64,000 nucleotides of DNA from NCBI RefSeq assembly GCF_026571515.1, contig NW_026858374.1, positions 1-64,000 of the forward strand. Direction: 5' to 3'. Under the pieces are notes generated by a model, which worked only from the letters and a program-made list of their open reading frames with translations, was not told where the DNA came from and did no database searches. Shown piece after piece: positions 4,426-53,296 of the stretch. The DNA comes from Ruditapes philippinarum. Lineage: Eukaryota. Made by a program: the position numbers and the translations under genes. The number at the start of each line of letters is the position of its first letter. The first letter of the stretch is position 1.

Positions 4426-4469
4426 TTAAGGGCACACTCTTTGCTCTCTAAGAGCGTGCAGTTTGTTGT

Positions 4470-11325: not shown

Positions 11326-11400
11326 GTATGTGAGAGGATATTACTGGAGTTATTCTGTTTGGAGATCAGCACAGTGTTTCATGAGCCTGTTCCAAAATCG
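11326..11400 (+). CDS. TRIM33: TIF1/TRIM33-like 75-nt exon: start of bromodomain (VCERILLELFCLEISTVFHEPVPKS); not in the ORF track
   Basis: ttctttcgtAG|GTATGTGAG...AAATCG|GTAAGA; phase 0/0; the CERILLELFC...FxEPVP motif is typical of TIF1 bromodomains. Confidence 0.9.
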
Positions 11401-11842: not shown

Positions 11843-12220
11843 GTCCCTAATTACCACAAGATCATTAAAGATCCGATGGATTTTGGAGCCATCAAATGCA
11901 AGCTTCGTAGAGGGCATTTTGCCCATTACAATTCAGTAGAAGAATTTCTATCCGACATCAAGCTTGTGTTTCGAAACTGCTTTAAATACAACTCTGAAAA
12001 ATCTGATGTATATGCTGTAGGAAAATCTGTTCAGAACTATTTTGAATCACTTGTGAAACACTTTTTGCCGTGTTATGTAGACTACCTCAGCAGGCGAACA
12101 CCAAGTCCTGTCACAACAATGGAGTCAAATGGAACCGACGGACAGAGTCGCAATAAGAAACGCAGAAGTCCTGCACCGGACTCCACAAGGGATAACAATA
12201 GTCCGGTCCATTTTTCTTGA
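11843..12220 (+). CDS. TRIM33: TIF1/TRIM33-like terminal coding exon: rest of bromodomain plus basic tail (putative NLS KKRR)
   Basis: tttctttcAG|GTCCCT gives VPNYHKIIKDPMDF...DIKLVFRNCFKYN; stop TGA ends at 12220. Confidence 0.92.
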   Translation, partial: VPNYHKIIKDPMDFGAIKCKLRRGHFAHYNSVEEFLSDIKLVFRNCFKYNSEKSDVYAVGKSVQNYFESLVKHFLPCYVDYLSRRTPSPVTTMESNGTDGQSRNKKRRSPAPDSTRDNNSPVHFS

Positions 12221-21700: not shown

Positions 21701-24700
21701 TTTCCATTAGTGTATAGTTAGAAATGGCAAAGGTTATTTCTATATATTAAGATTAATAGCACATTACTGTTTATACACGGACGTGCATCATGTCAATATC
21801 CTTTGTAAGTAATTCATTGATAATGCAACACAATTTCTTTTTATTAGTGGGTGGAGAATGAGAATGAAAATTAAGTAGCCATGATTTGTTACCGAAAGTA
21901 TTTGCAGTGTCAACTCGAGACAATGTATTGACTTGATATAATCTAAACTTATGTACTTAAAATTACCTCTTGATATCATAACGAGAATGGTGTTGACTCT
22001 GGTACAGGGTCGAAATTAAAACACCCGACATAAGTAATGTAAAGTAACTCAAGCTTGCTTAATTTTAAAGGGAAGATAAAAGTTGTCTTTCTTGATATAT
22101 TTCATTTTAAGATACGCCATGGGGTTACTTCACATATGCCATGTCAATCTAGGACCTGAATAGACAGACAAAACAATAGTAAGAATACGCAAACCGGATA
22201 TTAGCGTAGACTACACAAAACAAATAATTAAACAACTGCTTAAAAGTGTTAAACCATTTTTTTAAAAAGAATAAAGATAATTTATTTGTTTTTTGATTAT
22301 TGCTCTTTGGAAACAAAAAATATGAACGACATTTCGACATGAATAACCACAAATTATACCATAGAAGGTATGCTTTTCGAATTTTGAAGGTGTTTGAGTG
22401 TAAACAAAAGTTATACGCAGAGGGCAATGATGTTTATTAGCCGTGAACAATAGCTGAAGCTTTGCATTGCTGATACAACCATGGTTAGCAATCTTGATGA
22501 CAAAGGAAAGTGCATTTTGTCATCGAGGCACACGGGCCTACGGACGTTTTAACTGATATCTATATATATGTATAACAAATTCATTTACCAAGGAGTCGGA
22601 TTTAAACCTCAGTTCATAGAAAACTTTGATGTTGCGTACTAAGTTACCATGTCCAGTCAAATACTCTTCCGGTATGGTGTACTAGCTGATAAAGTCCTGC
22701 GAGTATAACTGAATTAGTAAAACAATGAAACAGGCTCAACTCAGGGGTACATTGCCATTCTTTTTGGACATTATCACATGGTACACATGTTTCTTATTCA
22801 AAAAGTATGAACTATGGAAAAACACAAGCGTCAAAAATAAACTTCAAGATTTTGATAAAAAAAGAAGATATTTACGTTTACACTTTTATCAAAATATCTT
22901 TAAACAAGGATCACTCTTTAACAATTATTTTTTATATACATATGTATAAATCAAAATTAAGGTCTTACAGCGAGAGTCAGGTAGTATTACGCTTAGATAA
23001 TGCACCGTGTATATCCAGTAACACCGGAATGTGAAAATAACGCACGATTCGTGCAAGAAGTAACGCAGAATTGTGCAATAAATGGCGGATACATGACAGG
23101 ATTTCCAATGCAGTAAGTAAACTGGCCAATATAAATTTTTTTTAACCGAACTGAAAAAATGAATAGCCGCATGCGGCTGCGAAGACATTATTCTTTATCC
23201 ATCGTCAAGATTATGTACTTTCAAGATCATTCGTTAAAATAATGGCTTGAGTACCGTTATAAGCGTGATTCTGCCTTTTGTCGACTTTTATAAGTACAAC
23301 AATGCATAGATTTAATCTAAAAAGTGGGTGTTTGTAAAATGTGCTATATATAGACACTTGTACAAAAGCAAGGTGATATTAGTGTAATACTTAAGTGACT
23401 TGTGTGTGTTCTGCAAAGGTTGATATTGGTTCTTTCTGTAAACCCACAGTAGTATAATTTACTGCTTAATAACTGTCTCAAAACAAAAAAAAGAAGATTA
23501 AATATAAAAAAATACGCAGTTATTTTACCACCGGCGAATCTGAAATTTTCATTGACAAACTTAAAACTTTATACAGAGCACTGTGTCAGACATATGTACA
23601 ATGTATAAAGTTTGTGGTCAAGTGACAGTTCTAAGGAAACAATTGTTTTATCAAATTTTTTTTGTATTATGGTTAAAGTGATATTAGCTATATGGTAAAG
23701 TGAAGTTTGTGTAATGCCAAATATTTATATTAACAGTGTAAAATGAAATTTTCAACAGCAGTATAAAATCAATAGTTCACGTTGACTGAGCAACAGAAAC
23801 TTCCAAAATATTTCTGAGATATGTTCAAAATAATGGAATGTAGTAAGAAAACAAACAAAATGTTATGTCTAATTTGATTGTTAGTGTAAGACTGGTATTT
23901 TTTTGTTAAGAAATAGTAGATTACATATAATTCAATAGTTTGGGTATCTTGCCCATTTTTCAAGAAATATGTACATTTTAATGCCATTTGTATTGTCTGA
24001 TTTATTTAAAAAGGATTTGTTTTTTTCTATTAGAGTTCAAGAGTTTTTTTTTAGTTGTTTTGAAATTCCAGTTATGTTAGATTAAATGTGACCATACCAT
24101 GAGGTTTTTGGCATCATTTAAGCTACCTGAAGCTATTAATATCGGCTTTTTGCTGGGGATTTTTATACTCTAAATAAAGGCAAGACAAATCTGCTTGTAA
24201 CTAAAATGGACTTCATATACCCCCACAGTTCATTTGCTACAACAGTTCTAGGATTAGGTTTTAAGTGTTAACAGTTTTTTTAAATGTAAAATATCCACTT
24301 AACAAAAAGAGGTTTAGCACATATTAAAGTTTGAAAAGGAATGTGATAGTAATACTTATATCATGCGGGTCAAACATTGATATATTACTCTATATAGTCG
24401 TACCCTCACAAATATATGTAAGTGATAAAATTGTTAAATGTACTACATTTTATAGATATACTATTATTTCATTCGCTCTTATTTATACTTTATTAGATTT
24501 TTTCAGTTCAGTTGTTGAATTAAAGAAAATTGTATTGTTGTTCATGCAAAATTGTTCAGTATGAATGCAGTATTTTGGTTATTAAGAAGACTTGACTTCA
24601 CAAGTCTTTTGATTGTAAAAACAAAACAAAAGTGCTAATTTAGCAATAAAATTTTTAAACATCAGATGTGTTTATTTTCATTTTCTCTTTAACTTTAGAG

Positions 24701-26733
24701 TTTAACATTGTACACAGTTGAAAAGTAAAGGGTTGTGAATGGGTTTGAAATAAACAATTTTCAGAACTGTGATCAATTGTAGGCATAGTAAAGTAGCTGT
24801 TTTGGGAAGAGTTTGATATTCTAAATTGTGCCATTGGAACAAGCCTAGGCTTTGACATTGTTTGTTGTCAGAAGTATCGATTTTGAGGTCATTAGGTCAA
24901 AAATGACAGTGGAAAAATCCTTGGGTAACAATAACTTGTTATGGCTGTTTTATAACTACATCTTAGGACAGCACATACTTTTATGCTTTAGAGTCTTTGT
25001 TACTAGTATATTACATGTCTCCTAAAACTGAATTGCAGCCTTAAGTCAACACATACACATATTCAAAGTCAATATAAAAATCACAACATTTATTCAGAAC
25101 AACCGGGATACTACATTGAATTTTTAATTTCCATTAGTGTATAGTTAGAAATGGCAAAGGTTATTTCTATATATTAAGATTAATAGCACATTACTGTTTA
25201 TACACGGACGTGCATCATGTCAATATCCTTTGTAAGTAATTCATTGATAATGCAACACAATTTCTTTTTATTAGGGGTGGAGAATGAGAATGAAAATTAA
25301 GTAGCCATGATTTGTTACCGAAAGTATTTGCAGTGTCAACTCGAGACAATGTATTGACTTGATATAATCTAAACTTATGTACTTAAAATTACCTCTTGAT
25401 ATCATAACGAGAATGGTGTTGACTCTGGTACAGGGTCGAAATTAAAACACCCGACATAAGTAATGTAAAGTAACTCAAGCTTGCTTAATTTTAAAGGGAA
25501 GATAAAAGTTGTCTTTCTTGATATATTTCATTTTAAGATACGCCATGGGGTTACTTCACATATGCCATGTCAATCTAGGACCTGAATAGACAGACAAAAC
25601 AATAGTAAGAATACGCAAACCGGATATTAGCGTAGACTACACAAAACAAATAATTAAACAACTGCTTAAAAGTGTTAAACCATTTTTTAAAAAGAATAAA
25701 GATAATTTATTTGTTTTTGATTATTGCTCTTTGGAAACAAAAAAATATGAACGACATTTCGACATGAATAACCACAAATTATACCATAGAAGGTATGCTT
25801 TTCGAATTTTGAAGGTGTTTGAGTGTAAACAAAAGTTATACGCAGAGGGCAATGATGTTTATTAGCCGTGAACAATAGCTGAAGCTTTGCATTGCTGATA
25901 CAACCATGGTTAGCAATCTTGATGACAAGGAAAGTGCATTTTGTCATCGAGGCACACGGGCCTACGGACGTTTTAACTGATATCTATATATATGTATAAC
26001 AAATTCATTTACCAAGGAGTCGGATTTTAAACCTCAGTTCATAGAAAACTTTGATGTTGCGTACTAAGTTACCATGTCCAGTCAAATACTCTTCCGGTAT
26101 GGTGTACTAGCTGATAAAGTCCTGCGAGTATAACTGAATTAGTAAAACAATGAAACAGGCTCAACTCAGGGGTACATTGCCATTCTTTTTGGACATTATC
26201 ACATGGTACACATGTTTCTTATTCAAAAAGTATGAACTATGGAAAAACACAAGCGTCAAAAATAAACTTCAAGATTTTGATAAAAAAAGAAGATATTTAC
26301 GTTTACACTTTTATCAAAATATCTTTAAACAAGGATCACTCTTTAACAATTATTTTTTATATACATATGTATAAATCAAAATTAAGGTCTTACAGCGAGA
26401 GTCAGGTAGTATTACGCTTAGATAATGCACCGTGTATATCCAGTAACACCGGAATGTGAAAATAACGCACGATTCGTGCAAGAAGTAACGCAGAATTGTG
26501 CAATAAATGGCGGATACATGACAGGATTTCCAATGCGGTAAGTAAACTGGCCAATATAATTTTTTTTTAACCGAACTGAAAAAAAGGAATAGCCGCATGC
26601 GGCTGCGAAGACATTATTCTTTATCCATCGTCAAGATTATGTACTTTTCAAGATCATTCGTTAAAATAATGGCTTGAGTACCGTTATAAGCGTGATTCTG
26701 CCTTTTGTCGACTTTTATAAGTACAACAATGCA
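12738..26733. repeat. Tandem array of four ~3.43-kb units (about 12738-16453, 16454-19880, 19881-23305, 23306-26733)
   Basis: Identical ORF-track peptides recur with a ~3425-bp period. The junction gtacaacaatgca|tagatttaatctaaaaagtggg occurs three times; the last copy exits at aacaatgca|aattatacc. Copy 1 is ~290 bp longer. Confidence 0.95.
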
Positions 26734-27109: not shown

Positions 27110-27932
27110 CTGTTGTCCGTATTACACCTTTATATGGACAGCTATCCATTGATCCATTGATGTGTAATTCAGTTTTAGTTCTACCTTACCTAACAATGAA
27201 ATATGAAACATATAAAAACCACTCTAGCTTTTACCGAAGCAATTCATCATGTTGTGTAAAAACTACGAGTTTATGCTCATTAAATGACGGGGCCTGTTTA
27301 TTTTCTTTACCAGTCTTGCAGAAAATGTAAAGACACACCTTATATATTTAAACAGCTTATCTTAATCAAATGCAAATGTAAATAAGTAAATATATATCGC
27401 AAAATAAAATGTGCTCTTGGCTACAAGGACAATTTGCACACACGCAAACTATGCCATATTTGATATCAAAATACACAACAATGCGTCACCGTTCAGAACT
27501 GTTCAGTAATTAGGAGAGATGTGTAAGCGGTCGGTAAAGTCGCAGTTCCGAGGGTAGCAGGTTCGAGTCCCGGGCAGACCGCACATTTTTCTCACCCTGT
27601 GACAAATGAAAATAAGATGGGTTTTTTTTTATCAGAATATTTGAAAAAGTCTAGTTACAAGAAAACAAATCAATATCAGTTGTATTTCTATAAACCTCAA
27701 AAAAATCTGATTTATTTATTATCTACAACTTGTTTCTTACGTTTTATGTCATTATCTCTGCCCTGACATTATGTCTGGTGACATATCGAAATATATGTAT
27801 CATTCCCAGTACAAAAACGGCCGTTTGATGTCTGTGTCGGGTTTGAGCATAACCGAAAATGTGATTTTAATCCGCTTCCACATGTGACGTCACACGAAGA
27901 CCAATCAGACCAACGGGCCCAGTTCCAGTCAA
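27110..27932 (-). pseudogene. Pseudogene paralog of the TM-TSP1-gC1q genes (closest to the 39829-41590 copy)
   Basis: TSP1 exon 27741-27932 (192 nt, DWNWARWSDWSSCDVTCGSG...ICHQT*CQGR) has an in-frame TAA. The C1q exon remnant at 27110-27335 (TFSARL...SFNEH...KVELKLN...MDSCPYKG) has a lost acceptor, a frameshift and large deletions. Intron sequence matches 40420-40560. No TM exon recognised. Confidence 0.88.
27500..27604 (+). mobile_element. tRNA-like repeat fragment inside the pseudogene intron
   Basis: B-box-like GGTTCGAGTCCC, ending ...caccctgtgaca; no complete cloverleaf. Confidence 0.4.
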
Positions 27933-28769
27933 CAACTAGTGGAAACTAAAAATGATTTTCAAACTATTTCCATGAACTTCAAAAGTGACTAAAGTATGTC
28001 ACTTGCACAGAGGAGCAGACTGCATCGTTGCCGCGATTTTTAGGAGTAAAACAGGTTCTGTAGTAAGAAAATCGCTTCGCATTTCTTTAATAATGCATAC
28101 ATGTAATACATAGTACATACAAGAGATAGTCCGTGCTAATCTCATTTGATTACTTTATCCCATGATCATTTCACAATTGCTAAAATTTCAAATATTTCTT
28201 AAAACATTCTCAAAAACTGCTGTAGAAAAAATGATTAGATCACTCTCCACGTGTCAATATTTTGAGAATTAATCAAAGTTTAAGACATGCCCTCATGCGT
28301 TAAGATCATCATCCATTATATCTGAAATGTATTTTACTTGACATATTTTATACCGCAAAGTAATAGATATTCATTTCCATTTATGCCCCTTTTTCAAGAT
28401 TTTTTTTTGTTTTACAAGATCGAATTGTTTTAAACTGTTCATAATGACCAAAATATAACGAATATAAATAATTTGAAGTAAAATAAGGTATCGACATGCC
28501 TGATTCCGAGTTATCTTTAGTTGAAAATGACTTAAAAAAGCAAAAATGCTCACTTTCAGGAGCAAATTATTAACAAATGAGCATGGCAACCCAATTATGG
28601 TTTTCTTAACACTTCCTACTGCCATAGCTTAGTTTGTAAAAATATGACACATGTTTGAAGTTGAAACGTATGAACAAAAAATGCCAAAAATATGTTTCTA
28701 CACTGTATATACGTTGCAAATTGAATTAATAATAGTTAACATTTTTAGACAATTTTTTTAAATATGTGT

Positions 28770-33867: not shown

Positions 33868-35308
33868 TTAGTTTTTGACGAGTAAAAAGCCTGTAAATGT
33901 AGTTCCATCTGGCTGAATGTGAATTGGCACACTCCCTGAATTTTGGACCCATACTTCACTTCCGGCATGGACAAATACCACAACAGAATCACCGCCTGCA
34001 GTTTTTATTCCACTTTTAAACGGACACTTACTGGTGTCCATTTGAAACTCAGCGGTATTGTTAGAACCACTCGCACCATATTCTCCTCTAAAGCATATTA
34101 TGTCGTCCATGATTGTGTTGTCTATTTGGTTTAATTTAGTGTTTTTGAATGCAAAATAATTGGTACTACCATAGATACGAAGCTTCGTAGTTATACCATA
34201 AAGAGTTGTCGCACTGACAGATTTGTTATTCACTCTAAGTTCTACTTCCCCATATGCGTCGGTAATTTGTATGAAATACATAAAGAGATAGACACCACTC
34301 TCTGGGGCTTTGAATATACCCGATCTATTGTCGTACCCATTCATATTATTGGTGGTAATCTCGTTAAAGACTACACGTTTATATTGTTTGACTGCCCGAG
34401 TCTTATTCGCAAGTCTTGCTGAAAAACTCACATGATGACCTGAAAGGCAAACATATTATTTATACGTATATCAAACAAAGAAAAAAACTATAAGCACACT
34501 TAACAATTCTTTTTTTACTTTGAACAGCAATCGTTTTTGATATTCACGACTATCAAAATAATCATACATTGACTGTATGTTAAGTGTTTTTCTATCTTTT
34601 TGTCACTGACGAAAAATTGCCTTTTATTCTTAAGTCAAGCGAGTATTTCTGTGCGAAAAAGCATCTGCAAATTGAATACTTACGAACTCTATCACTTCTT
34701 AGATCCAGACATTTAGGCAATTGACAGACCGAAATATCAATAAAACTCCCAGCACAAAAAATGCCGCTTGGTGTTGGAGTCGGGTTTGTGCATGTCCGAA
34801 ACCGTGACTGTGAACCATTCCCGCACATGACGTCACATGAAGACCATTCTGACCACGCAGCCCAATTACCATCAACTAAAATATTTAAATTGTATTTTTT
34901 CATTACTGTAAGGTGTTCAACACGTTTTATTAAAAGGGCTTTCTAAAACCCTGCCCACTTTCCTTTGAATGAACGTTGTAACAATATTATCTCAGCAGAG
35001 GTCGTTTTTTTGAAAGTATCTAAAAATATTTCTTTGTTCACCGCAAACAAAATCTGAAGATACTGTAAAGTATACTAACCTTGATTGACAGGAATATTTA
35101 TCGCAAATATGATGATAACGACAACAACTGCGACATATAGTATTATCATCATCACAAGCATAGTGATCAACAAACATTTCATCCGGTTTAGTGTATTATC
35201 GGATTGGCTAATTTTGTCTTTGATGATTTCTGCCTTTATTTCCTTTGTTCCTACCCCTTTCGTATCCAATCTTGTGTTCTCATAGATCACACTTTTGTCA
35301 CTCTGCAT
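33868..35308 (-). CDS. Type II membrane TSP1-gC1q protein, paralog A (330 aa; exons 35308-35080, 34875-34684, 34439-33868)
   Basis: Exon 1: MQSDKSVIYENT plus hydrophobic TM. Exon 2: TSP1 VDGNWAAWSEWSSCDVMCGNGSQSRFRTC. Exon 3: gC1q (VSFSARL, VVFNEI, GYDNRSGIFKAP.SGVYLF, GSEVWV, TTFTGFLL). All introns GT-AG, phase 1; the joined length of 993 nt is in frame. Confidence 0.92.
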
Positions 35309-35430
35309 TTTAACAAATTTACAAACACTATATTTAAATATCAAAACGGTCTAATCTACTTGCTAGACTAAATAAAATCATAGATACATTGGCTCTTATA
35401 CAGGACAAATATTAATTTAGAGTTAAGTTT

Positions 35431-35445
35431 AAAACTTCCGTGTTT
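35431..35445 (-). promoter_or_regulatory. Conserved ETS-like site (CGGAAGT) ~125 nt upstream of the paralog A ATG
   Basis: aaaacttccgtgttt; the same motif occurs at the same offset in paralogs B and C. Confidence 0.5.
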
Positions 35446-36479
35446 AAGATTTTTCACCAAACAAATACTTGTATGATGCACATATGTAAAATGATGTACT
35501 TTTGTAGTTTAATATGTGTATCCATGAGATCAGATCTAAAGAAAAGACTCTAAGAGTAATATAAGTAAATGCAACAAATAAGATGGCGTGCTTGGCTACG
35601 GCTTCAGTTTTTAACTTCAAACATGTTGGTTAATCTTTATTGATTTGTTATGCTGTTTAGATTCATATTTTCAGTATCGCTTTTTGCCCTACTCATTATG
35701 CACAAGCACGAAATGTTACTTCCGATTCTTAGTAAATTATTGTAATTTAAAAACAGTCTCAATGTATAGTGAAAAACTCAATGAGGATTTACGGCAATTC
35801 AAACAATAGACAGAACAAAACATTACGTTCCAGGCCATTAATAAAATAATCAGAGATAAATGTCTTCCAAACCAATTGGTTAAAAGTTTTAAACTATGGC
35901 CATAACTTGATCATGATAGTATGTCCATTCTTATTAATAAACATTGACAATAACATTTACCTCTGATTACGGAGAATAGCATGGGATAACAATTATTTAA
36001 TCTGAAACAAAAGATTATAAACTTCTTTTCTTTTCATTGTCTCACAGTAATTCGTCAAATACAGAACTAGTTAGGACATTCTTCAGCTTTCGATACCATA
36101 TTAGATATCCCCAGCAAACTTTAAGCATTTTTCTAAGATAAATAAGCAATTATCATAGTATAGTATTGCAAGCAGTATAAAAGTGAACTACCGGTTAGAA
36201 CACCAGCAACATTCTGGAGGGCCGTGGCCATTCAATTATGCCATTGTGGAAGACATGAATAAACCTTTAATATTAAATTTCTTAGTTTAACATTTTAATG
36301 TGTTAAATTTCCATGCATTTTAAGGAAATTATGTTTATACATCAGATAATCAAAGTATTCACTCAGGATGAATAAGTCTAACTAATGTTTCAACTTTTCT
36401 CTATTTTATGTAAATTTGTTGGGAAAATTCAAAGTTCTTTAAAAGTTATCTCAGAGAACAGTTTTTAGGGATACCCAGA

Positions 36480-37000
36480 CAAACAAACCTAAACTAAAGA
36501 GGAGATAACTCTTGAAATAAATATGCTAGAATTATGAACATCGTTATACATGATGTGAGTGGTGACAAAGAACAATTATCTTCAGTCTAAAGTAGATACC
36601 ATTTATAGTAACAAAGAAGAAAAGAATTTCTAGAAAAAATCTTAAGTTCAAGGGGGACATAATTCTGGAAATAGTAAAGCTAGAAGTCGCACACATCATT
36701 TGAGTAATAATAAGGAACATATACTTGTCTGAAGCAGATACATTAAGTGACAAAGAGGTTATAGAAAGCAAACAACATTTATTTCATGAAAGTCTAAGTT
36801 CAATGATGATAATTCTGATAATATTGGTGCTAGAATTATGAACCCTGTAACATATGATGTGAGTGATGATAAGAAACACATATTTAAAGTTTGAAGTAGA
36901 TCCACCCAGAAATAAAGAAGTTATTAAAAACATGAAAATTCTAAGTTCATCGTGGTAAATCAATACATTTTGATGCTAGAATTGTGAACCTCGACGTGAA
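36480..37000. repeat. Degenerate ~150-bp satellite remnant
   Basis: atgctagaattatgaac-like motif recurs at ~36522, 36827 and 36973, with a weaker copy near 36680. Confidence 0.5.
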
Positions 37001-38069
37001 TAATTGGTTAATCAGTAGGGGACTAAGAAAAAGTTCAAACACTTAGCTATAGAAAATAAATGACGGAGCACATGTGATTACTAATATTGTAAACGGACCT
37101 GGACTTCTCTCGGGTATTGTGGTTAATTTGGTACACTTTGCGCGTTACGTTGTTGATTTTCTTTTTGTTTCTGGAATAAGTTTAAACATATTTTTACTTT
37201 ATTTACTTTACAAAATAAATGTATCAACAATGTATTACCCTAAAATTCGATAGTAAGACTGTCTCGATAATGTGCCACCAACTGAATTAAAAAACAAAAT
37301 ACATCAATGTCACGAAATTGTAAAGTTTCAATTTGAAAGCTAAAATCAACTAAATCATATACCGGCAAATTAATGATTTTAAGCTGTTTTGCTTATAATA
37401 GACATTAACTTGATCGCTATTGTTATCGTTTTTAACTTGTTTAAATAAAATGCGTTATTACACAACAGCTGTTTGTAGCACAAATAAAAAATCACGGTCC
37501 ATGCCCGAGAAAAAAGTAACCAATGAACGATCACCTGATTGCTATCCCTTTCTCTGTCGACACAACTTCTCTCTTCCCCTCGGTACGTGTATGTCGTTGA
37601 GAAGACACGGGGCATCGACAGAAGATTTGAAGACTGGGGACGGCGAAAAAAGATCGGAACTTATGCTGCGGACCAGCTGCCGATGTGCTGACTAAAGACG
37701 AGGGGAGTGGCCCTACAAAGTAGGCGCTTTGGTCGACGAGGATGGTGTGCTAAGATGCGTGAGCCCTCAGCACGGTTAGACAGCTTGAACGGCAGGCCGT
37801 TTGCTGGCACCAACAGCCCTTTTCAGGGCTACCCTTTCGTATTGTCACAGGTTACTGTATATTAAGGTTCTCATTGACCGCCGTACAGTGACCTACTTTT
37901 GGCTCAAAATTCATATCTTTGGCTAATACTCCGTGGAAATTGCACGGAGGTAAATTATCCCCACTTTGTGCTCCTAAATTAACTCTTTAATGGTATGACT
38001 GGTGACATGTCCGGGGTCTGTACTCGACAGCGAAAGCTGCATTTTGTGCTCGAAAGGGCGGATGAACCT

Positions 38070-38312
38070 NNNNNNNNNNNNNNNNNNNNNNNNNNNNNNN
38101 NNNNNNNNNNNNNNNNNNNNNNNNNNNNNNNNNNNNNNNNNNNNNNNNNNNNNNNNNNNNNNNNNNNNNNNNNNNNNNNNNNNNNNNNNNNNNNNNNNNN
38201 NNNNNNNNNNNNNNNNNNNNNNNNNNNNNNNNNNNNNNNNNNNNNNNNNNNNNNNNNNNNNNNNNNNNNNNNNNNNNNNNNNNNNNNNNNNNNNNNNNNN
38301 NNNNNNNNNNNN
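38070..38312. other. Assembly gap (243 N)
   Basis: Run of N. Confidence 1.
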
Positions 38313-38831
38313 AACCCCAGAAAAAGTGATCTATTCAATGGACATGCTCGGGAGTACGGGTATCTAATACCCGTTAACGCACTGAGCATGCTTAAGTATA
38401 TTACTCTGACACATTTTCAACAGAAAGGTCCCCAAATTATGATACAACCTTATTTATCTTATGTAAGGTGTTGTGATATTGTTTACCATTCGTGACAACC
38501 ACAATGTATGTTATGAATATTATAAAAAAATAAATAAAATTGTGAAAATGACAATCATTTTATGTTGAATGAAATCATTGCTTTTACTTTCCAACTTCCT
38601 TCCATGTTATTCATTTGTGGCAATCATTTATATTTACGAACGTTACCATGTTGAAATTGGGAAGAAAAGCGGTAAACTATCGTTCGTGTGTATGTTTGTC
38701 TCATGTACGAATATCTACTTTTTATTTACTTTCCATAGAAAATGACATTGTTTTGTCAGTTAAAAAAGGACAAATGAAAGAAAACAGTTTAAAAAAGTTA
38801 AAAACGACAAATAACCGACAAACAACCGTTT

Positions 38832-38945
38832 ATGGAAGGGCACCTAAGGTCTTCCTCCACCAGTAAAGCTGGAACGTCGCCATATGACATTTACTGTGTC
38901 GGTGTGACGTAAAACCCAATCAAGTAAATAAACAAACAAAACAAG
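38832..38945 (+). mobile_element. SINE 3' fragment
   Basis: agggcacctaaggtcttcctccaccagtaaagctggaacgtcgccatatgac matches 31820-31900; (AAAC)n tail. Confidence 0.8.
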
Positions 38946-39249
38946 TTTAATGTTATTATTTGCAAGAATGCTCCTAGGCCTGACATTAATGTAACAAGGT
39001 GTCAAAACTGTCACTATCGGTTTATTGTATAAAATAAATTTTAGAGTGGTTTAATGTTGCTTTCTGCACATTTATTTTGTGAAGAATTGAATTCTTAATT
39101 TACAGGTGAATCATGTAGTATTGACAGATTAAACGTTATAACTTACTTTATAGAATTACTTGCAGGTTAAGATACATATTGTTTGTTCATACAAAATGAC
39201 TTAAATAGACCATGGTCATGAAATATATAAACAATGATAAGAATATACA

Positions 39250-39325
39250 CAATTGAGACCACCCCGCAATTAAGACCATTTTGGTCCAGTACCGTTTGTG
39301 GTCTTAATAAAGGGTTTTTACTGTA
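39250..39325. mobile_element. Tc1/pogo-like MITE end fragment (second copy 50873-50946)
   Basis: gaccaccccgcaattaagacc...ggtcttaa...gggtttttACTG|TA is shared by the two copies. Confidence 0.55.
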
Positions 39326-39828
39326 AAAGATTTTTTTCACACAAAAGTACAATTATTTAAGAAATATATTATCACATAAAAAAAGACAGTGAAAAGGTAC
39401 ACATGTATACATTTTAGAAAGTTAAGGGAAGTACTGATCACACTTTCACAATTGATTATCAACAAACATACAAATATTTATCAAAATTTAGGTATTACAG
39501 CCATATTTATGCAGTATTACACTTAGATAATGGGTAAACTGTTGAAAACTAATCACAATTGAAAACAGAGCATTTCAAAACAAAGACAAAAAATGAGTTC
39601 AAGCGTTAGAAATAATTATAAAAATAACATTAACCTTCCATGCTGATATATGAACCAATCTTAAATGTCAGTTCATCAACATTAGACGACGTCGTCACGT
39701 ATTAGATATCTTATCATGCATTTTTATCCAGATTTTCTTAAATCTATATATAACCTATAGGTATTTTGAATAACCGTTTCTATGCTCTTTATATGTTTGA
39801 TTGTTACTTTTTGTTCTGTATTTATTCC

Positions 39829-41590
39829 CTAATCTTCCTTCAGTAAAATACCAGTGAAAGCGCCTGAAGTAAATGAATGAAAGTAACTATATCGCCATCC
39901 CGCATTCTGAATCCAAACTTGACTCCCTGCATGCATATATGTAATAATTGAATCACCACCTTTTGCTCGTACCCCTCCTTTGTATGGACAACTGTCCATA
40001 AATTGTTGTAATCCAACAATGGAAGAACCGGTTAAAAGATGCTTACTTTCTCTTAAGCAACTTATTTTCTCTACGGTTGCATTATCTGGCCTGTTTATGT
40101 TTGTACTTTGGAATACGACAGAATTATTGTTACTAAAGACAGAAATATCTACATACATACTGGAAAGTGTTGTCTTACTGATGGATTTGTTATTCAGTTG
40201 TAGTTCTATCTTACCAAATTCACCGTCAATTTCAATGAAATATATAAACAGATAAACACCACTCACTGGAGCTTTGAAAATGCCTGAACTAATATCGTAC
40301 CCATTCATGTTATTGTACGTAATCTCGTCAAACACGACGGGTTCATGCTCATTAAATGACGGGGGTCTGTATACTTTATTAGTCAGTCTTGCAGAAAAAG
40401 TACTCCTATAACCTGAAAGACACACCTTAAATATTTTAATAGCTTTTCTTAATTCAATTGAAATGAAGACAGGAAGTCAATTTATACTGCAAAATAAAAT
40501 AGCTCTCGGTTACAAGGACATTTTGCATACTTATTTAAGCAAATTATGGCTGTATTTTATATCAAAGTACGCAATGTTCCTTCTATATATTGGCGAAACA
40601 ATGATTTTAAAAGTCCATTTACACGAAACCAGTATCTGGTGTGTCCGCATCGTATATAGATTTACTATGAAGTGTTTCTAAATATTTTTTTCTCCCAAAT
40701 AAACAGATCACATTAACTTCTACAATTTGAATCTTACTTTTCATGTCATTAACCCTGCCATGACATTTTGGCAGCTGACACGTCGCAATATCTGTATCAT
40801 ATCCAGTACAAAAACGTCCGTTTGATGTGGGTGTCGGTTTTGTGCATGTCCGGAAACGTGATTTTGATCCACTTCCGCATGTGACGTCACATGAAGACCA
40901 GTCAGACCACTGGGCCCAGTTCCCGTCAACTGAAAAGTGCGAATAATTTTCAAGCTGCGTCCTTGTACCACAATAGTTATCTTCGATATTATGGCCTAAT
41001 AATCTAAATTCCTCAAAGTCTAACAGAACAATATCAAAGTAAACTATACTTTCGTTGCAATGGATATAGGTGTCACCCCGGTATAGAATAAGGTCCGGTC
41101 CGTTGTAGTATAGAAAATCTTTGATAAGACAGTTAAACCTGATAATAGTAACACATATTTAAAGTTCTTAAAAAGTTGAAGGGTTGACATTATTCACATG
41201 TGTGTTAATTGACTAAATTAGCACTGACGTTTACGTTATCGTAAGCGGATATCTTTGTCAGATATATAGTATCAAAAACTGTAAAATTATTTGGCAGACA
41301 TCTTTAGGCAAACAAAAAATGATGTCATGTGAGTTAGTTTAGAGGTTAATGTACTTACCTTGGTTTATGGGTGCATATATCACAAATGTGGTAATTATAC
41401 CAATAACTGCAGCGTACATTAAAATCATCATCACAAGTGCTGTGTACATTAAACATTTTATCCGAGATAACCTATTGTCAGAAAGGCAATTTTCGTCTTC
41501 TACACTCGCCCTTTTAGCATCAGTTCCTATCCTTACAGTACCGGTATTTAACACAGTGTTTTCGTAGACCACAATCTCCTCGCGTTGCAT
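39829..41590 (-). CDS. Type II membrane TSP1-gC1q protein, paralog B (335 aa; exons 41590-41359, 40929-40738, 40412-39829)
   Basis: MQREEIVVYENT plus TM; TSP1 VDGNWAQWSDWSSCDVTCGSGSKSRFRTC (frame not shown in the ORF track); gC1q STFSARL...GYDISSGIFKAPVSGVYLF...AFTGILL. GT-AG phase-1 introns; 1008 nt in frame. Confidence 0.92.
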
Positions 41591-41711
41591 TATAAACACT
41601 TTGTGAGCAATGGAGAACTAGATTTTAAGTTGACGGTTAGAGTCCAAACTTTACTTGTATCGAATAGAATATTATAATACTAGTATACCGTTTCAAATGA
41701 ATGAAAATCTA

Positions 41712-41725
41712 AAAACTTCCTTGTT
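41712..41725 (-). promoter_or_regulatory. Conserved ETS-like site (AGGAAGT) ~122 nt upstream of the paralog B ATG
   Basis: aaaacttccttgtt in an otherwise diverged upstream region. Confidence 0.5.
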
Positions 41726-44053
41726 AGGTGAATTTACCTACACATGAACAGCAGTTATTAATCGAGTAATGCACACGCATTATAATAGTACAGTTGAATA
41801 GCGATGATTCAATGTTAGGAGTTCAAGTTTTCCACCGTGGCAACGCTTCCTGAAGGCACTGTAGACACGTGCCTACACTTTTTCGCTGAAATGATAGATA
41901 TAATGAATATAAAATGCAATAAGGATAATGGCGTCCAGATATGTAGAAAATGATCAATAGTCATATTCGAAAACAAGTCCGTAATTGAGTTTTATCTTAT
42001 TTTATAACGAAAGCGATGCCTTTTGGATGAAGCATTGACATCTTGTCTGTCATACCATTTTCCCTTGAGGTATTCATAATTTTATTTTTTGTATGTTAGC
42101 TCGTGGGTTCTCTAACGTTGAACAAAACACATAGTAGTGACGAAACCAAACAAGGTCATAAAGTCGATTTCAAATAAACGTGAAACATACTCTGTGTTAA
42201 TACATCTCGGTAACGATTTAAGTATGTATTGTAACTACATTGTATATACACAAGTAAAATCTTCGTATACACAGCAAAATCTTTATTAGCACAGTGGTAA
42301 AGCGTTTGCCTTTTGAACTAGCGATGCGATTCATTCTTTTTTTCTCCCTTTTTTAAAATTACTTCACGCAAAATTGTTCATTCAAACTGAATATATATTT
42401 GAGAGTGAATAGTTCTTCCGGATTCTTTTGTTGACTTTGCGATCAGAATGACGAGCTGTTTTATTTGCGTAGAAACCGTACTTATTGAATTACTGGAGGT
42501 ATGAAATAGAGAAAAACAGAATCCCTTAAGAAAGCCAACACGGCAAAATTGAAAATGTTGCAGGTTGGGTGTGATTAAGTCTGTTCATGGGCGGTAGTGA
42601 TACATGTAATTGCAAGCTGCCTTCAACGACACGTTAGTGCCACATTGAAGTTTACTTTGTCTACTTTACGTTAACAATCAGTTTTATGTATTTTGTTTCA
42701 CCATAAACATTAAATCGAGAATTTCATTTATAAATATTGGGTCATTATATCTTATTGATAAAATACATCAAACGCTGTTTGTGTGACAACAGATATTTTA
42801 TCACAAGTTATTATTTTACTGTGTGTTCCTTTGACTCCTAGGTGTCTTACCGATTGTCCTATGACTATGTATCAAGGTGTTTTGCGACTGCTTTTAGTTA
42901 ATGACCCTCTTTCTTTTTGATCATTGTTTTCATTTTCTTTCTAATTACATTTTTAGACAATCTTAATAATCACTTTAAAAGATATAAGCCTTTTTGTCGC
43001 TATGCGAATGAATTTTGATGTTTACTAAAACTTTTGCATACATTTGTTTTTATTGCATAGTTCTAGATTCATATATCGTTACTCCAACGATATACATGTT
43101 CCGCAAATGGCTCCTTTTTGCAAAAATGTCACTAACAATAGTTTTGCGCTAAGTTAGTTATAAGTAGAAACATATTTATATTGATAGAACATCTTTTAAT
43201 GTTATCAAAATGCTGCAATAATAATGTATTCTCTTCCTGCTGAACATGCCTAAAATACCTCAGAATGCAGCTATGCCAATGTAGAATTTCAAAAAAATCG
43301 GGGAAGCATGCCCTCGGACTCCCCAATTACACTAGTGCCTACACATTGGTTAAATTATTATCTAGATAATTAATGAAAGTTTTAAGAGCAGTGTAAAATG
43401 TTTATTTGGAGGAAGTTTACAGATCACAAGTATCCGAGAAATTTAACTAGAAAGTTTGTTTCTGATACTCCTTTAGATTATTTTAGATAGATGTTAATCA
43501 AGATTCAAGTAATATTTTACATATAATGTGGGATTAATGACAGATTTTTCAGTATTAACGACTAAATTTCTACTGCAGTAAATTTATGCATATTTTGACC
43601 ACTTAATGGTAATTTACGTGGTTTGTAAGTGCCATTGATAACGTGTAAATTGCTTCCTTTTGGTTACTTCACAATATTACACATTCAAATACATTTTCAA
43701 AATTTTCATGAAAAGTAGCATGAATCTGGAGGCGTGCTGCTTTAAGTGCATCATTTCAATCTGCAATTAATAAAGTCAAAACTAAGTCAGACACACATTA
43801 TTAGAAAACATTTATAGTAAAAAATAGTGATAATAATAAAAAATGTAAGAATATAATGATCGTATCTTGTATATATAATACACATGAACCGTACCAAAAT
43901 TGATTTAATAAATAGTTTTGAACATATTTCTAAATATTGACAACTTTGTTTTCCTTTTCCTTCTAAAAGTCAGTGGTATGGAATTAAATATGGTAAGTAA
44001 ATATCGGACATTTTACACTTTTCAGAAATATCATTTATATTATTATACTAATT

Positions 44054-45567
44054 TTAGAGCGGCAAATGAGATGAAATTGTGTCTTGTATCTTTGAACTTT
44101 CGACCAGTAAAACTCCTGTGAATGTAGTACCATCTGGCTGAATGTGGATGGGCAGTCTCCCTGAATTTTGGACCCAGACTTCACTTCCTGCATTGACAAA
44201 TATCACAACAGAATTACCACCTGCCGTTTTTATTTCACTTTCAAAAGGACATGTTTTGATATCTATTTCTATTTTATCAATTTTGTTAAAACCAGCTGCA
44301 CTATAACGTCCTCTGAAACATCTTATTTCGTCCATAACTGAGTTTTCTGTTTGGTTTAAATTTATGTTTTTGAATACAAAAGAATTGTCTCTACCAGTTA
44401 TGTAAATCTCCGTAAATATACCATAAAGAGTTGTCGCACTGACAGATTTGTTATTCATTCTCAGTTCTACTTCCCCATATGCGTCGGTAATTTGTATGAA
44501 ATACATAAAAAGATAAACGCCACTCACTGGGGCTTTGAATATACCCGATCTATTGTCGTATCCACTCATGTAATTAGTCGTAACCTCGTTAAACACTACA
44601 CGTTTATCTTGGTTTACTGCCGGCGCCCTGTTCGAAAGTCTTGTGGAAAAACTTACATGATGTCCTGAAAGATACGCATCAGATATTTATATCGCAAACA
44701 GAAAAAGAAGCAAACTCAAAGTTTTTAGTTCACTTTATGTTATCCGCAAACAAGTAAAGTATTGATATTAATAGTCATGACCTATAAAATTATGACATGT
44801 TTTAAGGTAAAATGTGTTAAGGACAGTCATTGAAATAACGATCCCTTTATTCAGTAGTCAATACATCTTAAAGTTTGAGATAAACATCTCCTCAAAAAGG
44901 CAAAAACAACTTACGAATAATGTCACTGCTGTCAACCAAACATTCAGGCAATTGGCAGGCTGAAATATCTGTAACTTTTCCAGCACAATGAATACCGTTT
45001 GCTGTTGGTGTCGGTTTTGTGCATGTCCGAGACCTGGACTGTGAACCATACCCACACGTGACGTCACAAGAAGACCACTGCAACCAAGCAGACCAGTTCC
45101 CGTCAACTAAAATATTCAAGTTGTATGTTTTACACACACATATATATATTTGTAATATTTGTAAGTAGGTCAAACTCTATTAAATGGCTTTCTACCCCTC
45201 CCCCACACACCTTTCACGTGGTAATTAATATATACGCTGTATGTATATACTTAGTAAAGAATGTAATGAAAATCTTTATACATATTTTTTATCACCAATG
45301 CGAACAAAATAAGCTGAAGTTATTGTAAGTATACTAACCTTGATTGACAGGAATATTTATCGAAAATATGATGATAAAGACAAAAACTGCGACATAAAGT
45401 ATTATCATCATCACAAGCATAGTGATCACCAAATATGTCATCCGATTTAAGACATTATCGGAATGGCTCGTTTTGTCTTTGATGACTTCCATTTTTGTTT
45501 CGTTTGTTCCTATCCCTTTTGTATTTAATCTTGTGTTCTCATACATCACATTTTTGTCACTCTGCAT
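44054..45567 (-). CDS. Type II membrane TSP1-gC1q protein, paralog C (343 aa; exons 45567-45339, 45106-44915, 44664-44054)
   Basis: MQSDKNVMYENT plus TM; TSP1 VDGNWSAWLQWSSCDVTCGYGSQSRSRTC; gC1q VSFSTRL...TTFTGVLL with a ~13-aa C-terminal extension relative to A. GT-AG phase-1 introns; 1032 nt in frame. Confidence 0.92.
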
Positions 45568-48021: not shown

Positions 48022-49546
48022 TTAATTATTAAAAGCGCTATCTTTATTTTTTGATAGGAGCGAAAGGAAAACAGCGTTGATGATAATAGTGCATAATAAG
48101 AAAAACGCCATTGCAATTAAATCAATGCCTGAACTGATGTGTTGCCACGTTATTTCAGGTTCATTTATGCTCGCTTTATTCTCGGCTGGAATGCTACATT
48201 CATCCTTAATGTCCACTGGTTTAACTTTGTTGTTTATATCTATCTTCTCTCCGAACTTACAAGGGAAACATAATAATATTCTGAATGTACTTCGTAGACA
48301 AGCTGGTACTTGGCTTGTCTTAAAATAAATACTCAGATTCAGTAAGGTTACCACGGTCATGAGCGTGCTCAAGATCAAAAGAATCATCAAATAGTAGCTT
48401 AGAATCGGCACCGGTTCTGACGTCTTGGGAAGATTATCTCCAACAAGGGTCATGAAGACAGCTAGAGCTAGTAACACTGTAACGGAATACCCAACTCTCT
48501 CACCTGATTCAGCTGGTAGTATGAACACTAGAATATTTATTATAGACATAAAGACTATAGGAAGAACAACATTAACAATAAGGAACTCGGGCTTGCGTTT
48601 GATTGTGAATATGAAATGTAATGTATCGGATGTGTAATGTTCGCCGGCTGTTCTTTGTACCCTGGTATTTTCCAAATCCCATTCGCCATTTTCTGTGAAG
48701 AAATCAAGCAGCACTTCATCAGCGGTAGGGTGTAAGTATACTTCTGTACCAACGTAGCTCCATACGTTAAACGATAAAATACATATCTGTAACAATAGAT
48801 GCAGTATTGTTATATAATAAATTACATTTGATCTGATTAATTAGAAAGAGCTGAAATCAATAGATTGGTACGATTGACAAATGAAAGCGAAATTTTAAGT
48901 AGTTTAACGCATAATGTTATTTTACCTATTTGAATAAAGAATGCTCTTTCTTATATGTTTTATATGTTATGTGTTGTAGAAATTGTTATGCACCATTTAT
49001 TTTACAGATGCTTCTATGGGAAATCCTAAAACTAAAATGGATATAACTAACCTGAGTATCAAACGGGTAAAATGTGACGTCAGCATTGCAAGAGGTGTCA
49101 AAAACAGCTCCTGGTACAAATGTTGTATGCCCGGAGTTATATATCCTAATTGTCATCCAGTCATCTCCAAGGTCAGACAGCTTTGTGTACGGATTTGTGA
49201 GAACCAGTTTTGGATACCATACGTCGGATAACCTAAATAATGCTGAGTATGCCATTCCATAGTCTTTTGGATCCCAGGTAATGATTTGATCGTTCCATCC
49301 TAGTATAAGAAGACCATACACTGAAAACTTTGCTGCGACTTCGTTAAATTCTTGAATTGTTAATAAATAAAAAGAGACGGTGACGACTACCGGATGACTC
49401 TGATCTGACACTGGGCGTTGTCGGGCGTCATACCCGTCCAGTACATCGCGCATCAGGTCAACTGAATTGTTGTATGAAACACAATATGATATTCTTACTG
49501 ATGATAAACACAGTAGTATAATGACAGCAACATGAACATATCTCAT
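48022..49546 (-). CDS. Divergent nicotinic acetylcholine receptor-like Cys-loop channel subunit, non-alpha type (419 aa; exons 49546-49052, 48786-48022)
   Basis: Signal peptide; GYDARQRPV; WND..I.WDP.DY; VWYPKL; Cys-loop C-NADVTFYPFDTQ|I-C (13 residues, split by a phase-0 GT-AG intron); ENGEW; M1-M3 with PAESGERVGYSVTVLLALAVF; M4. Confidence 0.95.
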
Positions 49547-51989
49547 CCTGTCCGAATAAGAAGCCTTTTAAAACTGACAGTACAAATATTGTTAAAATAT
49601 TTATAATACCAACTAAAATATGTTTGTATCCGTGCTTCTTTGTTGAAGTTCTAATGCCTTTTATTCAATATTATGTTGAAAATATAATTATTTGTCAAAC
49701 AATTTGGACAAAATCCATGAAATGTTTATCATAACAAGTACACACTACCGTTAATAATTTCTCAAAGAAGTGCATTACGTTGATATGTGGCAACCTCTAA
49801 CTTTCAAAATATCTATTGGGATTTAAAATTTAAAGGTTACGGACAAAATGTCTTACTATTGTAGTTTTATCGGTTTTCAAAAACGCTTCTATTGAAGTGA
49901 AAGGAGTTATTTTGTAATCGGATTGTTGTTCAAAAACTGTTCATTGTATGAAAAAAAAGAATTTATAGATAAATATTAGTAAATACAGGTAATTTAAGAC
50001 GCATAGAAATGAATGGTTTAATTTGAGTACATCTTCGCACAGCAATAGAAAGCATATTGATTTATAGCCTAATTAAAAAGAAGTAAATACACTAATGAGA
50101 ATAATGGACATTTTTTTCAGCGTGAGATATTTTTTGAACTTTTAGTAGATGTAGTTAACAAAATATATATGACAAAATATAGAAGGTAAGAAAAGCTATT
50201 ATCAAACGGGATAATTGAAACTCTACAGTATTAAAAGAAAGGCTTGTACATTTTCATAAAATATCTGCTTTTCGTATGGTCATCCACACCGCCAAGAAAC
50301 AAACAAACAAACATGTAAATACTACTGTATGCTGGACAAAAAAAATACTTTAAAAAAATCAAATAGTAGGCACTGGGAAAGATTCGATCGCCACTGTCTA
50401 TCGAGTGTTGATTCAGGTTTCAAAATAAAGTTCGCCAGTTAAATAAATCGATCAGTAATGTTAATACTGCCAGCGGAGATAATTGTTTAAACAGTTATTA
50501 TTACATTAAGGCGTAGACTTATCGGAATTGTTTCTCTTTAATGCGGCTTTTAAAGAATAACTAGAGAAATATTTTATAAAAATAAATTTCTATTTTGCCA
50601 TGCAAGTAGGAACTCGTGCAATATTGTACGTATATACAAGCAAAATTAGGTTCAATATGTGCCAAGGCAATAGGTGAATTACGTACATAAAACATATGAA
50701 AATTTAATCTTTAATATTACATATATTCAGACTTATGGTCTTATTAGGATAAAATATTATAACATCAGTTTATAGTAATATTTGAAGGTTATAATAAAAT
50801 TGTTTAAACATGTTCATACGTAAAAATGTAAATAAAGTGGTCATGAAATATATACCTTGATAATTATATCCATAACTAAGACCATCCGCAATTAATACCC
50901 CTTAAGTCCAGTCCCTTTGTTGGTCTTAACAGTGGGTTTTCACTGTATATATAAAACGTGTTTGCAAGTAAATGTCCTGATGAACGGCAGCAAGCTAGAA
51001 TATTGCTTGTTGCTTGCATGCAGCAGGTGCAGCAGATGCACGGCTATTCAGCATGAGTAATCGCTGGTGTATGATACACGATTTCAGCGCAGTATGAGCG
51101 AGGCGATAGCGCCGTGAAAGCGCTAAGAACGAAGTAGAAGCGCGGTCCGAACGCAGACAATCGCTGTAAGAACGCAGTACAAGGCCGTGGAAGCTCCGTA
51201 GCAACGCAGTGATTGCCGTGAGGACGTCGTGAAGTCTCCATGTCATCAAAAATTTCAGATTTGTCTTGCGAGCTCGTGATGCTTCCTAAATCAATAAACG
51301 CCGTGCAAACGCAGAAGAAGCGCAGTCTAGTGTGACAGGGTCTTTACAAATATTAGTTCTACTGAAACACAGACGAAACGCCTTTGTTTTTTGTTGTTGT
51401 TTTTTATTGTTTTTTACGGTGGGGCTTTGTTGTTGTTGTTCTTCTTCTTGTTGTTATCAAAGTATACTGGCACATGAAGTCATATTTTCAATAAGACGTA
51501 GATACAATACGGTTTTAATTATGATAAAAAACAATATTGATAAACAAGTATTTTATTTCAAAACCATGCAATTCTGCCTGTAAAGTATTTAAACAAAACA
51601 GGAATTCCTGCATTATTTTCTCCTCATTGAGCATTTATCACCAAAGCGAATATTAATCAATAAATGACTTATTCTCATGGTCAATACAAGTTAATGTTGC
51701 ATATCGGGGAGTTAAATTGTACATGTCAAATGACTCATCATTAAATTGTTGTATTTGCTATTAATTGAGACGTTAAACAAATTGAAAATTTGACTCTCAT
51801 CTTTGTGTTTTCAAGTGATAGATTTGTGAGCGATTTGTTTTTAAATAAATCTTATTATCTAATGAGAACGTAAATCTGATAGTATATAAGTTGTATTCAA
51901 GTGAAGAAAAAGCACAACTATTGTTAAGAGCAAGAGTAGCCCGTTATTTGTATATCTTTTTAGATATAGTATTGGTAAGTTTTATATCT

Positions 51990-53296
51990 TTCTAGAAAGG
52001 GTGGTCGCTTTTATTGCCTTAATGTTGATTTCCGCAAAACATTTGATAAAATTAAGCATTCTAAGCTGTTTGAAGCTCTAGAAAGAAAATGTTTACATGG
52101 TAATTTCTTAATAAATATTACAATCTATGTATCTTGTGTCAAATTATCAAATAGAACATCAGGTTACTTCCCTTGTAATATTGGTACCAGACAAGGGGAC
52201 AAAACAAGTTATACAATTTTGTCATTATCTATTGAAGTATTATCCCTCATGTTGAGACAAAATTGTCATACCGATATTTTTTATAACAAATGAAATCCCT
52301 GACATACTATGTCTTTTGTTTGCAATTGTGCCGAAACTTCTTCAAAGTTACAACAGCAAATAAATATTGTTGAACAATTATATAATAATACTGGTATGGA
52401 TGTTAATCTTGATAAGACTGAAATTGTTGTTTTCCGAAATGGTGGTCCCCTTAGAAGGTATGAAAAATGGTTTTATGGAGACTACGCTATAAATACCGCT
52501 TCACATTATAAGTACATGGGATTATTATTTACTCCAAAATTATCTTGGAATAAGGCACATGAAAAATGAGCTTGTCAAGCTCAAAGAGCACTTAATGTTA
52601 TACACCATTTTCAGAAACCATTTTAAGGATTTTTGCAAGAAGGTTCAAACCAAGTTTTATGTTACGGTTCCGAAGTATGGGGATATCAATATAGTTCCAA
52701 AATTGAATCTATACATCAATTTTGTAGAAAACTTTTATATGTACGTCATACTACAAATACATGTATGGTGTTAGGAGAATGTGGACGTCTACTTATATGC
52801 ATTACGTATAACACAAATTGTATATGTTACTGGTTTAAGTTACTACAAATGCCTCACGGATACCCAAAATAATGCTACTTAATGTTATATGCTCTTGACA
52901 ATGCAGAAATTGCTGGGCAACAAATGTTAAATTTCTTTTATTCAAATACTGATTTGGATATGCATGGATATCACAAACTGTTTGTAATTGTTAAGAAACA
53001 GATTGATAGATTGTTCTACTCAGAACTAGAGATAGGCAGACATTTAAATATTTCATACAATGATCGTTTATGTACTTTTTGCTTAGAAAGGAACATTAGA
53101 TGTATAGACTGTGAATATCATGCATTTTTCCATTGTTATAGATATACCGATATTAGAAATTTATATCTATTTAGCTGGTATAATTCTGGAACAAGTGTGG
53201 AAAACTTCTATAATTTATTATCAACTTGTAATGATGAAACTCTTCGAAAATTATCTACATATATTTATCATCTTATGGAATGCATTAAAAGTAAAT
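51990..53296 (+). mobile_element. Decayed non-LTR retrotransposon (CR1/L2-group-like) ORF2: RT plus C-terminal Cys/His region
   Basis: Fragments VDFRKTFDKI, GTRQGD, GMDVNLDKTEIVVFRNGG, YKYMG, YGSEVWG, VLGECGR and LEIGR...RLCTFC...EYHAFFHC lie in shifting frames with stops. Confidence 0.88.

Follow-up and report, generated by a model that had tools for sequence, protein, structure and literature searches.

Bivalves carry hundreds of C1q-domain genes, and their products have been treated as secreted opsonins that need a separate receptor. Membrane-bound bivalve C1q-domain-containing (C1qDC) forms are mentioned in PMC6835236, and a transmembrane class in PMC8905726. The hemITAM of CLEC-2, Dectin-1 and CLEC9A (PMC3576117, PMC12669754) has three acidic residues at -4 to -2 from the tyrosine (PMC3576117), and Syk-coupled lectins were reported in oyster (PMC13027682). 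A tyrosine with asparagine at +2 is the signature of Grb2 SH2 binding (PMC4263166, PMC5302901), as in the pYENV site of CD22 (PMC5302901). Here, we analyzed a stretch of 64,000 nucleotides of Ruditapes philippinarum (contig C6861:1-64000, called the window below) with three genes, A, B and C, that encode the tyrosine motif YENT in a short N-terminal tail. The genome searched for relatives comprised 1.41 Gb.

In all three genes the domain order is tail, membrane segment, thrombospondin type 1 (TSP1) domain and C1q domain; the original prediction did not mention the TSP1 exon between the membrane segment and C1q. It had located SVIYENT (A), IVVYENT (B) and NVMYENT (C) near the N-terminus, and all three are present on the minus strand, with YENT at residues 9-12. 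Tyr9 is the sole tyrosine ahead of the membrane segment, and Asn stands at +2 from it in 3/3 window genes. The conservation pattern indicates that the YEN motif is real and under selection at the family level. This claim holds because the wider family keeps the motif, and not because of any contrast within the window.

Conservation of the YEN motif in the tail family

The tails of the window genes had been described as otherwise divergent, with that of B barely alignable, which the comparison did not bear out. Tail identity was 20/43 (47%) for A/B, 18/43 (42%) for B/C and 32/44 (73%) for A/C, and the C1q domains of A and B share 81/193 residues (42%). In a simulation, a run of four identities in 44 columns arose by chance in 50% of cases at 40% identity and in 65% at 45%. 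Given this frequency and the recent duplication that separates A from C, the match among the three copies is by itself no more than chance would give. Seen in the window alone, YENT would be ordinary paralogy.

A genome search with exon 1 of A gave 22 matches, some of them weak (24-36% identity); the weak ones were the first exons of genes in which one to many TSP1 exons precede a final C1q exon. A census blind to the motif was carried out in two ways, with a 39-residue membrane-segment query and by walking upstream from C1q hits. The query returned 23 matches, 18 of which had an open tail from Met to the membrane, and 18/18 of these carried YEN(T/L) and a second motif, which reads Y-E-(T/P)-(L/I) in 17 tails and YGPL in one. 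The other five matches were broken: one keeps both motifs out of frame and two keep only the second. The upstream walk gave eight tail exons that overlap with the 18 census tails, all with both motifs. No tail exon was found within ~10 kb upstream of the more distant C1q hits L112-L134, which were used as outgroups only.

Outside the clam's own genome, a query with C1q only returned eight proteins, including the Mercenaria protein P0017 with both motifs. It also returned TSP1-C1q forms without the tail exon, among them P0018, a secreted form with a signal-peptide-like start. A profile search against 1.84 billion representatives yielded 18 matches, the named ones from Ruditapes and Mercenaria only, and a word-index search with the C1q domain of C gave three proteins only. 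The motif is not absent from homologs in other species: all six named Mercenaria mercenaria homologues, P0017 among them, carry YENT together with Y-E-x-L/I, and P0026-P0030 have both motifs.

Conservation was measured in 24 non-redundant tails (<80% identical to one another). Y was retained in 24/24, E in 23/24, N in 23/24 and T in 19/24, and the mean pairwise identity at other tail positions was 22%. On a tree of 33 exons, parsimony required no change at Y, one at E and one at N, versus a median of 10 for 60 columns of the tail. In the 22 own-genome exons, the Y-E-N codons had 0 amino-acid and 6 silent changes, compared with 208 and 71, respectively, across 36 other columns (p = 3e-4, Fisher test; the silent counts were estimated by parsimony, and some rows may be alleles). 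Three of the four YENT codons of B differ silently from those of A and C. The conserved core is Y-E-N-(T) and not V-x-Y-E-N-T as originally predicted; the valine at -2 was rejected as part of the motif, being found in 7/24 tails. The predicted juxtamembrane Cys (KCL) is present in A and B, with TYL in C, but it is not family-wide; with a Cys in 10/24 non-redundant tails, a conserved palmitoylation site was rejected. Met43 of A and C was also considered as a signal-peptide start and is not conserved (Ile in B, mostly Leu across the family).

Gene models, locus and expression

The three genes lie between 33.9 and 45.6 kb of the window, on the minus strand, with three exons each; all introns are GT-AG and in phase 1. 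Exon 1 encodes a hydrophilic tail of 44-45 residues and one hydrophobic segment, and according to Pfam exon 2 encodes the TSP1 domain and exon 3 the C1q domain. The features are as follows:

35080..35308, minus strand: gene A exon 1, 44-residue N-terminal tail, membrane segment (~residues 45-72) and phase-1 donor (gene model)
35273..35284, minus strand: gene A YENT, residues 9-12 (sequence)
34684..34875, minus strand: gene A exon 2, TSP1 domain (Pfam PF00090, E 2.1e-12; GT-AG ends)
33868..34439, minus strand: gene A exon 3, C1q domain with internal insert (Pfam PF00386, E 1.4e-15, two stretches)
41359..41590, minus strand: gene B exon 1, tail and membrane segment (gene model)
41555..41566, minus strand: gene B YENT, residues 9-12 (sequence)
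40738..40929, minus strand: gene B exon 2, TSP1 domain (PF00090, E 7.2e-13)
39829..40412, minus strand: gene B exon 3, C1q domain with insert (PF00386, E 1.7e-13)
45339..45567, minus strand: gene C exon 1, tail and membrane segment, juxtamembrane Cys replaced by Tyr (gene model)
45532..45543, minus strand: gene C YENT, residues 9-12 (sequence)
44915..45106, minus strand: gene C exon 2, TSP1 domain (PF00090, E 1.2e-13)
44054..44664, minus strand: gene C exon 3, C1q domain with insert (PF00386, E 8.3e-16)
27149..27939, minus strand: broken fourth copy, B-like, TSP1 exon with a stop (27721-27939) and decayed C1q exon (27149-27328) (tblastn)

No tail exon of the broken fourth copy was found by tblastn. 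The C1q domains of A, B and C scored 51-59 bits, all above the PF00386 cut-off of 23.7. Owing to the insert, the best PF00386 stretch covers profile positions 2-76. The insert is ~50 residues long, has a Cys pair (C256 and C279 in A) that is kept in 9/9 aligned sequences; the pair possibly closes an extra disulphide-bonded loop on the binding face. The AlphaFold model of A, built from nine sequences, was too poor to be used (mean predicted local distance difference test score 44.7).

The spliced models, of 330 aa for A and 343 aa for C, are identical to the database proteins P0008 and P0004, respectively, both labelled Ruditapes philippinarum and uncharacterised. These records may derive from the same DNA as the window and give no independent proof of expression. 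The raw RNA consisted of four runs from two studies, with 4-12% of each read, and the mean depth reached ~2.5 over the C1q exons. P0005, a protein from a contig of assembled reads, runs from the membrane segment through TSP1 to C1q of an A-like allele and spans both junctions. P0031, also from an assembled-read contig, has a tail and C1q in one frame. Most of the RNA reads are attracted by interspersed repeats between the genes (36066-39353, 42231-42641 and 43464-43874).

Contig C1422 (1-30000) holds a second copy of the locus with flanks 88-97% identical and two such genes, L053 and L054, compared with three plus a remnant in the window. It is either the other haplotype or a segmental duplicate with a different copy number. 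In L054 (1072-1098) TTG replaces the first codon, ATG, of B; a start at the ATG located three codons ahead of the Tyr would give MVFYENT and leave the motif in frame.

Elsewhere in the window, PHD-finger and bromodomain exons (Pfam) lie at 3-12217 on the plus strand, which we take to be the 3' end of a TRIM24/33-like gene. They are followed at 12739-26733 by a tandem array of about four 3.4 kb units (87-95% identical), with a single unit in the C1422 locus; this array could be real or an assembly expansion. A two-exon gene of a Cys-loop ligand-gated ion channel is located at 48025-49567 on the minus strand, with no match in C1422:1-30000, and broken reverse-transcriptase fragments of a LINE-like (long interspersed nuclear element) type are found at 51979-53295 on the plus strand.

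Second tyrosine motif and predicted signalling

The hydropathy profiles of A, B and C have a single Kyte-Doolittle peak of 2.5-3.4 starting at residues 50-53. The charge flanking the membrane segment is +1, +2 and 0 before it and -1 after it; TSP1, C1q and most glycosylation sequons lie after it. Because disulphide-rich TSP1 and C1q domains with sequons follow a single hydrophobic segment, we infer that A, B and C are type II membrane proteins with a cytoplasmic tail.

A second tyrosine is present in 19/24 tails, 21-31 residues downstream of the first, as Y-x-x-L/I/V and mostly as Y-E-x-L/I/V. In these 19 tails it has a hydrophobic residue at +5 in 17/19, a strict triacidic stretch at -4 to -2 in 5/19 and at least two acidic residues within -5 to -1 in 17/19. 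The tails of A, B, C, L053, L054 and P0032 are shorter and do not have the second motif; P0032 is a more distant one-motif tail that keeps YEN. In a C1q tree of 59 rows (midpoint-rooted, long branches flagged), P0031 groups as the sister of the window clade with support 99/94; it shares the inserted C1q domain and carries both motifs. Three further C1q lineages also bear two-motif tails, and between them lie C1q genes that are tail-less or unassigned. The ancestral tail likely carried both tyrosine motifs, YEN(T/L) and an acidic Y-E-x-L, of which the window clade probably lost the second. Such a loss, together with repeated grafting of the phase-1 tail exon, would be the simplest reading of the tree. 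The two-tyrosine tail of the family is more striking than YENT itself, and the window genes keep one half of it. A subclade (L192, L194, L196, L197, L200 and L204) reads I-x-Y-E-N-L, a YxN site and full ITIM (immunoreceptor tyrosine-based inhibitory motif) consensus, ahead of the hemITAM-like motif.

We consider it somewhat probable that A, B and C are membrane TSP1-C1q receptors with a YENT that, when phosphorylated, recruits an SH2 adaptor of the Grb2 type and so signals inward the binding of ligand to C1q. C1q domains form trimers. In the proposed mechanism, ligand bound by the C1q head would have its signal relayed into the cell, the tails would be clustered through the C1q trimers, the tail tyrosine would be phosphorylated by a Src- or Syk-type kinase, and the phosphorylated YEN would dock the adaptor. 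Having lost the second tyrosine, A, B and C would be adaptor-only members, co-stimulating or damping; members with two tyrosines would probably recruit, in addition, an enzyme with tandem SH2 domains, such as Syk. Direct signalling by A, B and C is what we infer from their sequences, with phosphorylation, partner and ligand all predicted. The genome contains 51 SH2 matches, including a Syk/ZAP-70-like exon (E 1e-18) and a SHP2/SHP1-like exon. At L170:6156-6875 (G000:C688), two half-SH2 exons that resemble each other lie side by side, share an insert and score with Grb2 and SHP2; they are possibly duplicated alternative exons. Three similar SH2 exons stand within 4 kb at L136-L138 (G000:C5835:52997-56873); judged by eye, they are presumably Csk-like.

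Several observations weigh against this reading. The intact own-genome exon L068 and its relative P0025 do not have YEN; L068 was outside the codon count and P0025 was kept, and with L068 the own-genome count of YEN is 22/23. The motif served as the anchor of the alignment, to the advantage of the codon test, and 10 of the 11 database tails came from a profile containing the motif and are biased towards it. The evidence for loss of the second motif is a single sister sequence, P0031, in a tree with flagged long branches. One SH2 exon scores about equally with SHP2 and Grb2 and may belong to either. Mean RNA depth was at most ~1.4 in bins covering the first exons, and 0 to 0.12 for B. No exon junction of A, B or C was among the matches listed for the four partly read runs, and P0005, for which an internal Met was taken as the start, begins within the membrane segment; transcription of the three tails is therefore a prediction.

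If the tyrosines recruited an SH2 phosphatase (SHP2, SHP1 or SHIP), the proteins would be inhibitory or modulatory receptors, with two tyrosines bridging the tandem SH2 domains of SHP2. The spacing of 21-31 residues in 19/19 two-motif tails agrees with this, as do the large hydrophobic residue at +5 in 17/19 proximal and 18/24 distal motifs, the presence in A, B and C of Val at -2 and of Leu at +5, and the 6/18 open tails with I-x-Y-E-N-L, a full ITIM (consensus in PMC12669754). SHP2 is activated by two linked sites (PMC10231330), and its N-SH2 domain prefers hydrophobic residues at -2, +1, +3 and +5 (PMC8007070). A, B and C match only at -2 and +5, and the second motif of the relatives only at +3 and +5. 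Contrary to the SHP2 consensus, Glu occupies +1 in 23/24 distal and 18/19 proximal motifs, and A, B and C have Thr at +3. Phosphatase recruitment also leaves the invariant Asn at +2 unexplained and meets one tyrosine only in the window genes, and we regard it as unlikely. We give still less credit to A, B and C being non- or weakly signalling decoys, or shed TNF-like type II ligands, with YENT a remnant left after loss of Y-x-x-L. The hemITAM-like motif is indeed absent in 5/5 own-genome clade members (A, B, C, L053 and L054), the copy number differs between the window and the C1422 locus, one copy is broken and read depth is low. However, YENT stays the same within the clade, with silent differences between A/C and B in three of its four codons, the more distant one-motif tail P0032 retains YEN, and no conserved basic cleavage site was seen in the stalk.

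Tyrosine sorting signals of the form Y-x-x-hydrophobic are common in short tails of type II receptors, and the YENL and Y-E-x-L relatives fit this pattern. The motif could then be an unphosphorylated sorting or endocytosis signal, with the C1q head internalising bound particles. Thr stands at +3 in 19/24 tails, however, and such signals need neither Glu at +1 nor Asn at +2. Both residues are nearly fixed, which argues against a plain sorting signal, and we find this explanation improbable. That the four shared residues reflect recent common ancestry only is true of the three window genes taken alone; cross-genus conservation throughout the family against 22% background identity, and codon change that is silent only, largely refute it, and its probability is very small.

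Docking of a Grb2-type adaptor remains our preferred reading for A, B and C, which belong to an apparently undescribed receptor-like C1q subfamily of venerid clams built of known kinds of parts. The number of TSP1 repeats in the stalk ranges from 0 to ~16 across the family; the member at L062-L063 (G000:C3475:47306-61225) has ~16 TSP1 exons between tail and C1q. Automatic names given to the genes are coadhesin-like, hemicentin-like and semaphorin-like, which may explain why the family was overlooked. A broader interpretation, which is tentative and in our view rather doubtful, would be a venerid family of innate receptors in which a mobile two-tyrosine tail/anchor exon was joined to several unrelated C1q lineages. 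It would converge on the logic of the vertebrate Dectin-1 cluster, with C1q heads instead of lectin ones, and its activating (YEN and hemITAM-like), ITIM-bearing and adaptor-only members would form a paired-receptor system with A, B and C as the adaptor-only arm. A C1q subfamily with its own conserved tyrosine tail would tie C1q-type recognition directly to kinase signalling in the cells of farmed clams, and the motif names specific residues to mutate.

Comparison with known systems

A, B and C share with bivalve C1qDC proteins the C-terminal C1q domain (PF00386), tandem clusters and birth and death of copies. C1qDC proteins are described mainly as secreted opsonins, and the available parts of the sources mention neither a TSP1-C1q membrane form nor a tyrosine motif. 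In a 2023 review (PMC10672478), the words transmembrane, tyrosine, thrombospondin, Syk and cytoplasmic do not occur. In the available parts of the literature, we found neither TSP1-C1q membrane proteins nor tyrosine motifs in the tails of C1qDC proteins described; the oyster C1q-class and hemITAM papers and the domain figure of PMC8905726 may show this architecture. The TNF-superfamily type II ligands have type II topology and a C-terminal domain of the C1q/TNF fold in common with A, B and C. Such ligands show reverse signalling. Pfam gives C1q and not TNF for A, B and C, however, and the TSP1 stalk and tyrosine motifs differ. In the ESM Atlas, P0017 matched C1q clusters at 0.81 or lower and, weakly, a TNF cluster at 0.77, and P0008 gave nothing usable.

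An ITAM (immunoreceptor tyrosine-based activation motif) has two Y-x-x-L/I units 6-8 residues apart. A, B and C have one Tyr, and the tyrosines of their relatives are 21-31 residues apart, so neither is of this type. The ITIM consensus V/I/S/L-x-Y-x-x-I/V/L (PMC12669754) is found in 6/18 open tails and is not that of A, B and C, where +3 is Thr, as the original prediction correctly noted. Its assignment of pY-x-N to the Grb2-family SH2 consensus is likewise documented (PMC4263166, PMC5302901). Tails that dock Grb2 through YxN, such as the immunoglobulin tail tyrosine (ITT) of IgG/IgE receptors and the YENV of CD22, share with A, B and C a single Y-x-N in a short tail. YxN is the conserved core of the ITT and CD22 sites (PMC4263166, PMC5302901), and because the CD22 site damps signalling while ITT boosts it, the sign of a signal is not readable from the sequence. 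These are vertebrate type I immunoglobulin proteins without homology to the clam genes, and Grb2 binding was shown there, whereas in the clam it is predicted.

The analogy to single-tyrosine C-type lectin receptors drawn by the original prediction fits the second motif of the family better than YENT, and A, B and C are without that motif. The hemITAM receptors (Dectin-1, CLEC-2 and CLEC9A/DNGR-1, and the oyster CgCLec-HTM and CgCLec-TM1) also have a short N-terminal tail and clustered genes. The second motif of the relatives is likewise Y-x-x-L/I/V after acidic residues; it resembles the hemITAM and does not fully match it. A, B and C have no Y-x-x-L, and the triacidic stretch is found in 0/3. 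The hemITAM receptors have a C-type lectin ectodomain, whereas the clam family has TSP1 and C1q or a coiled coil and C1q, with an extra YEN upstream in the tail.

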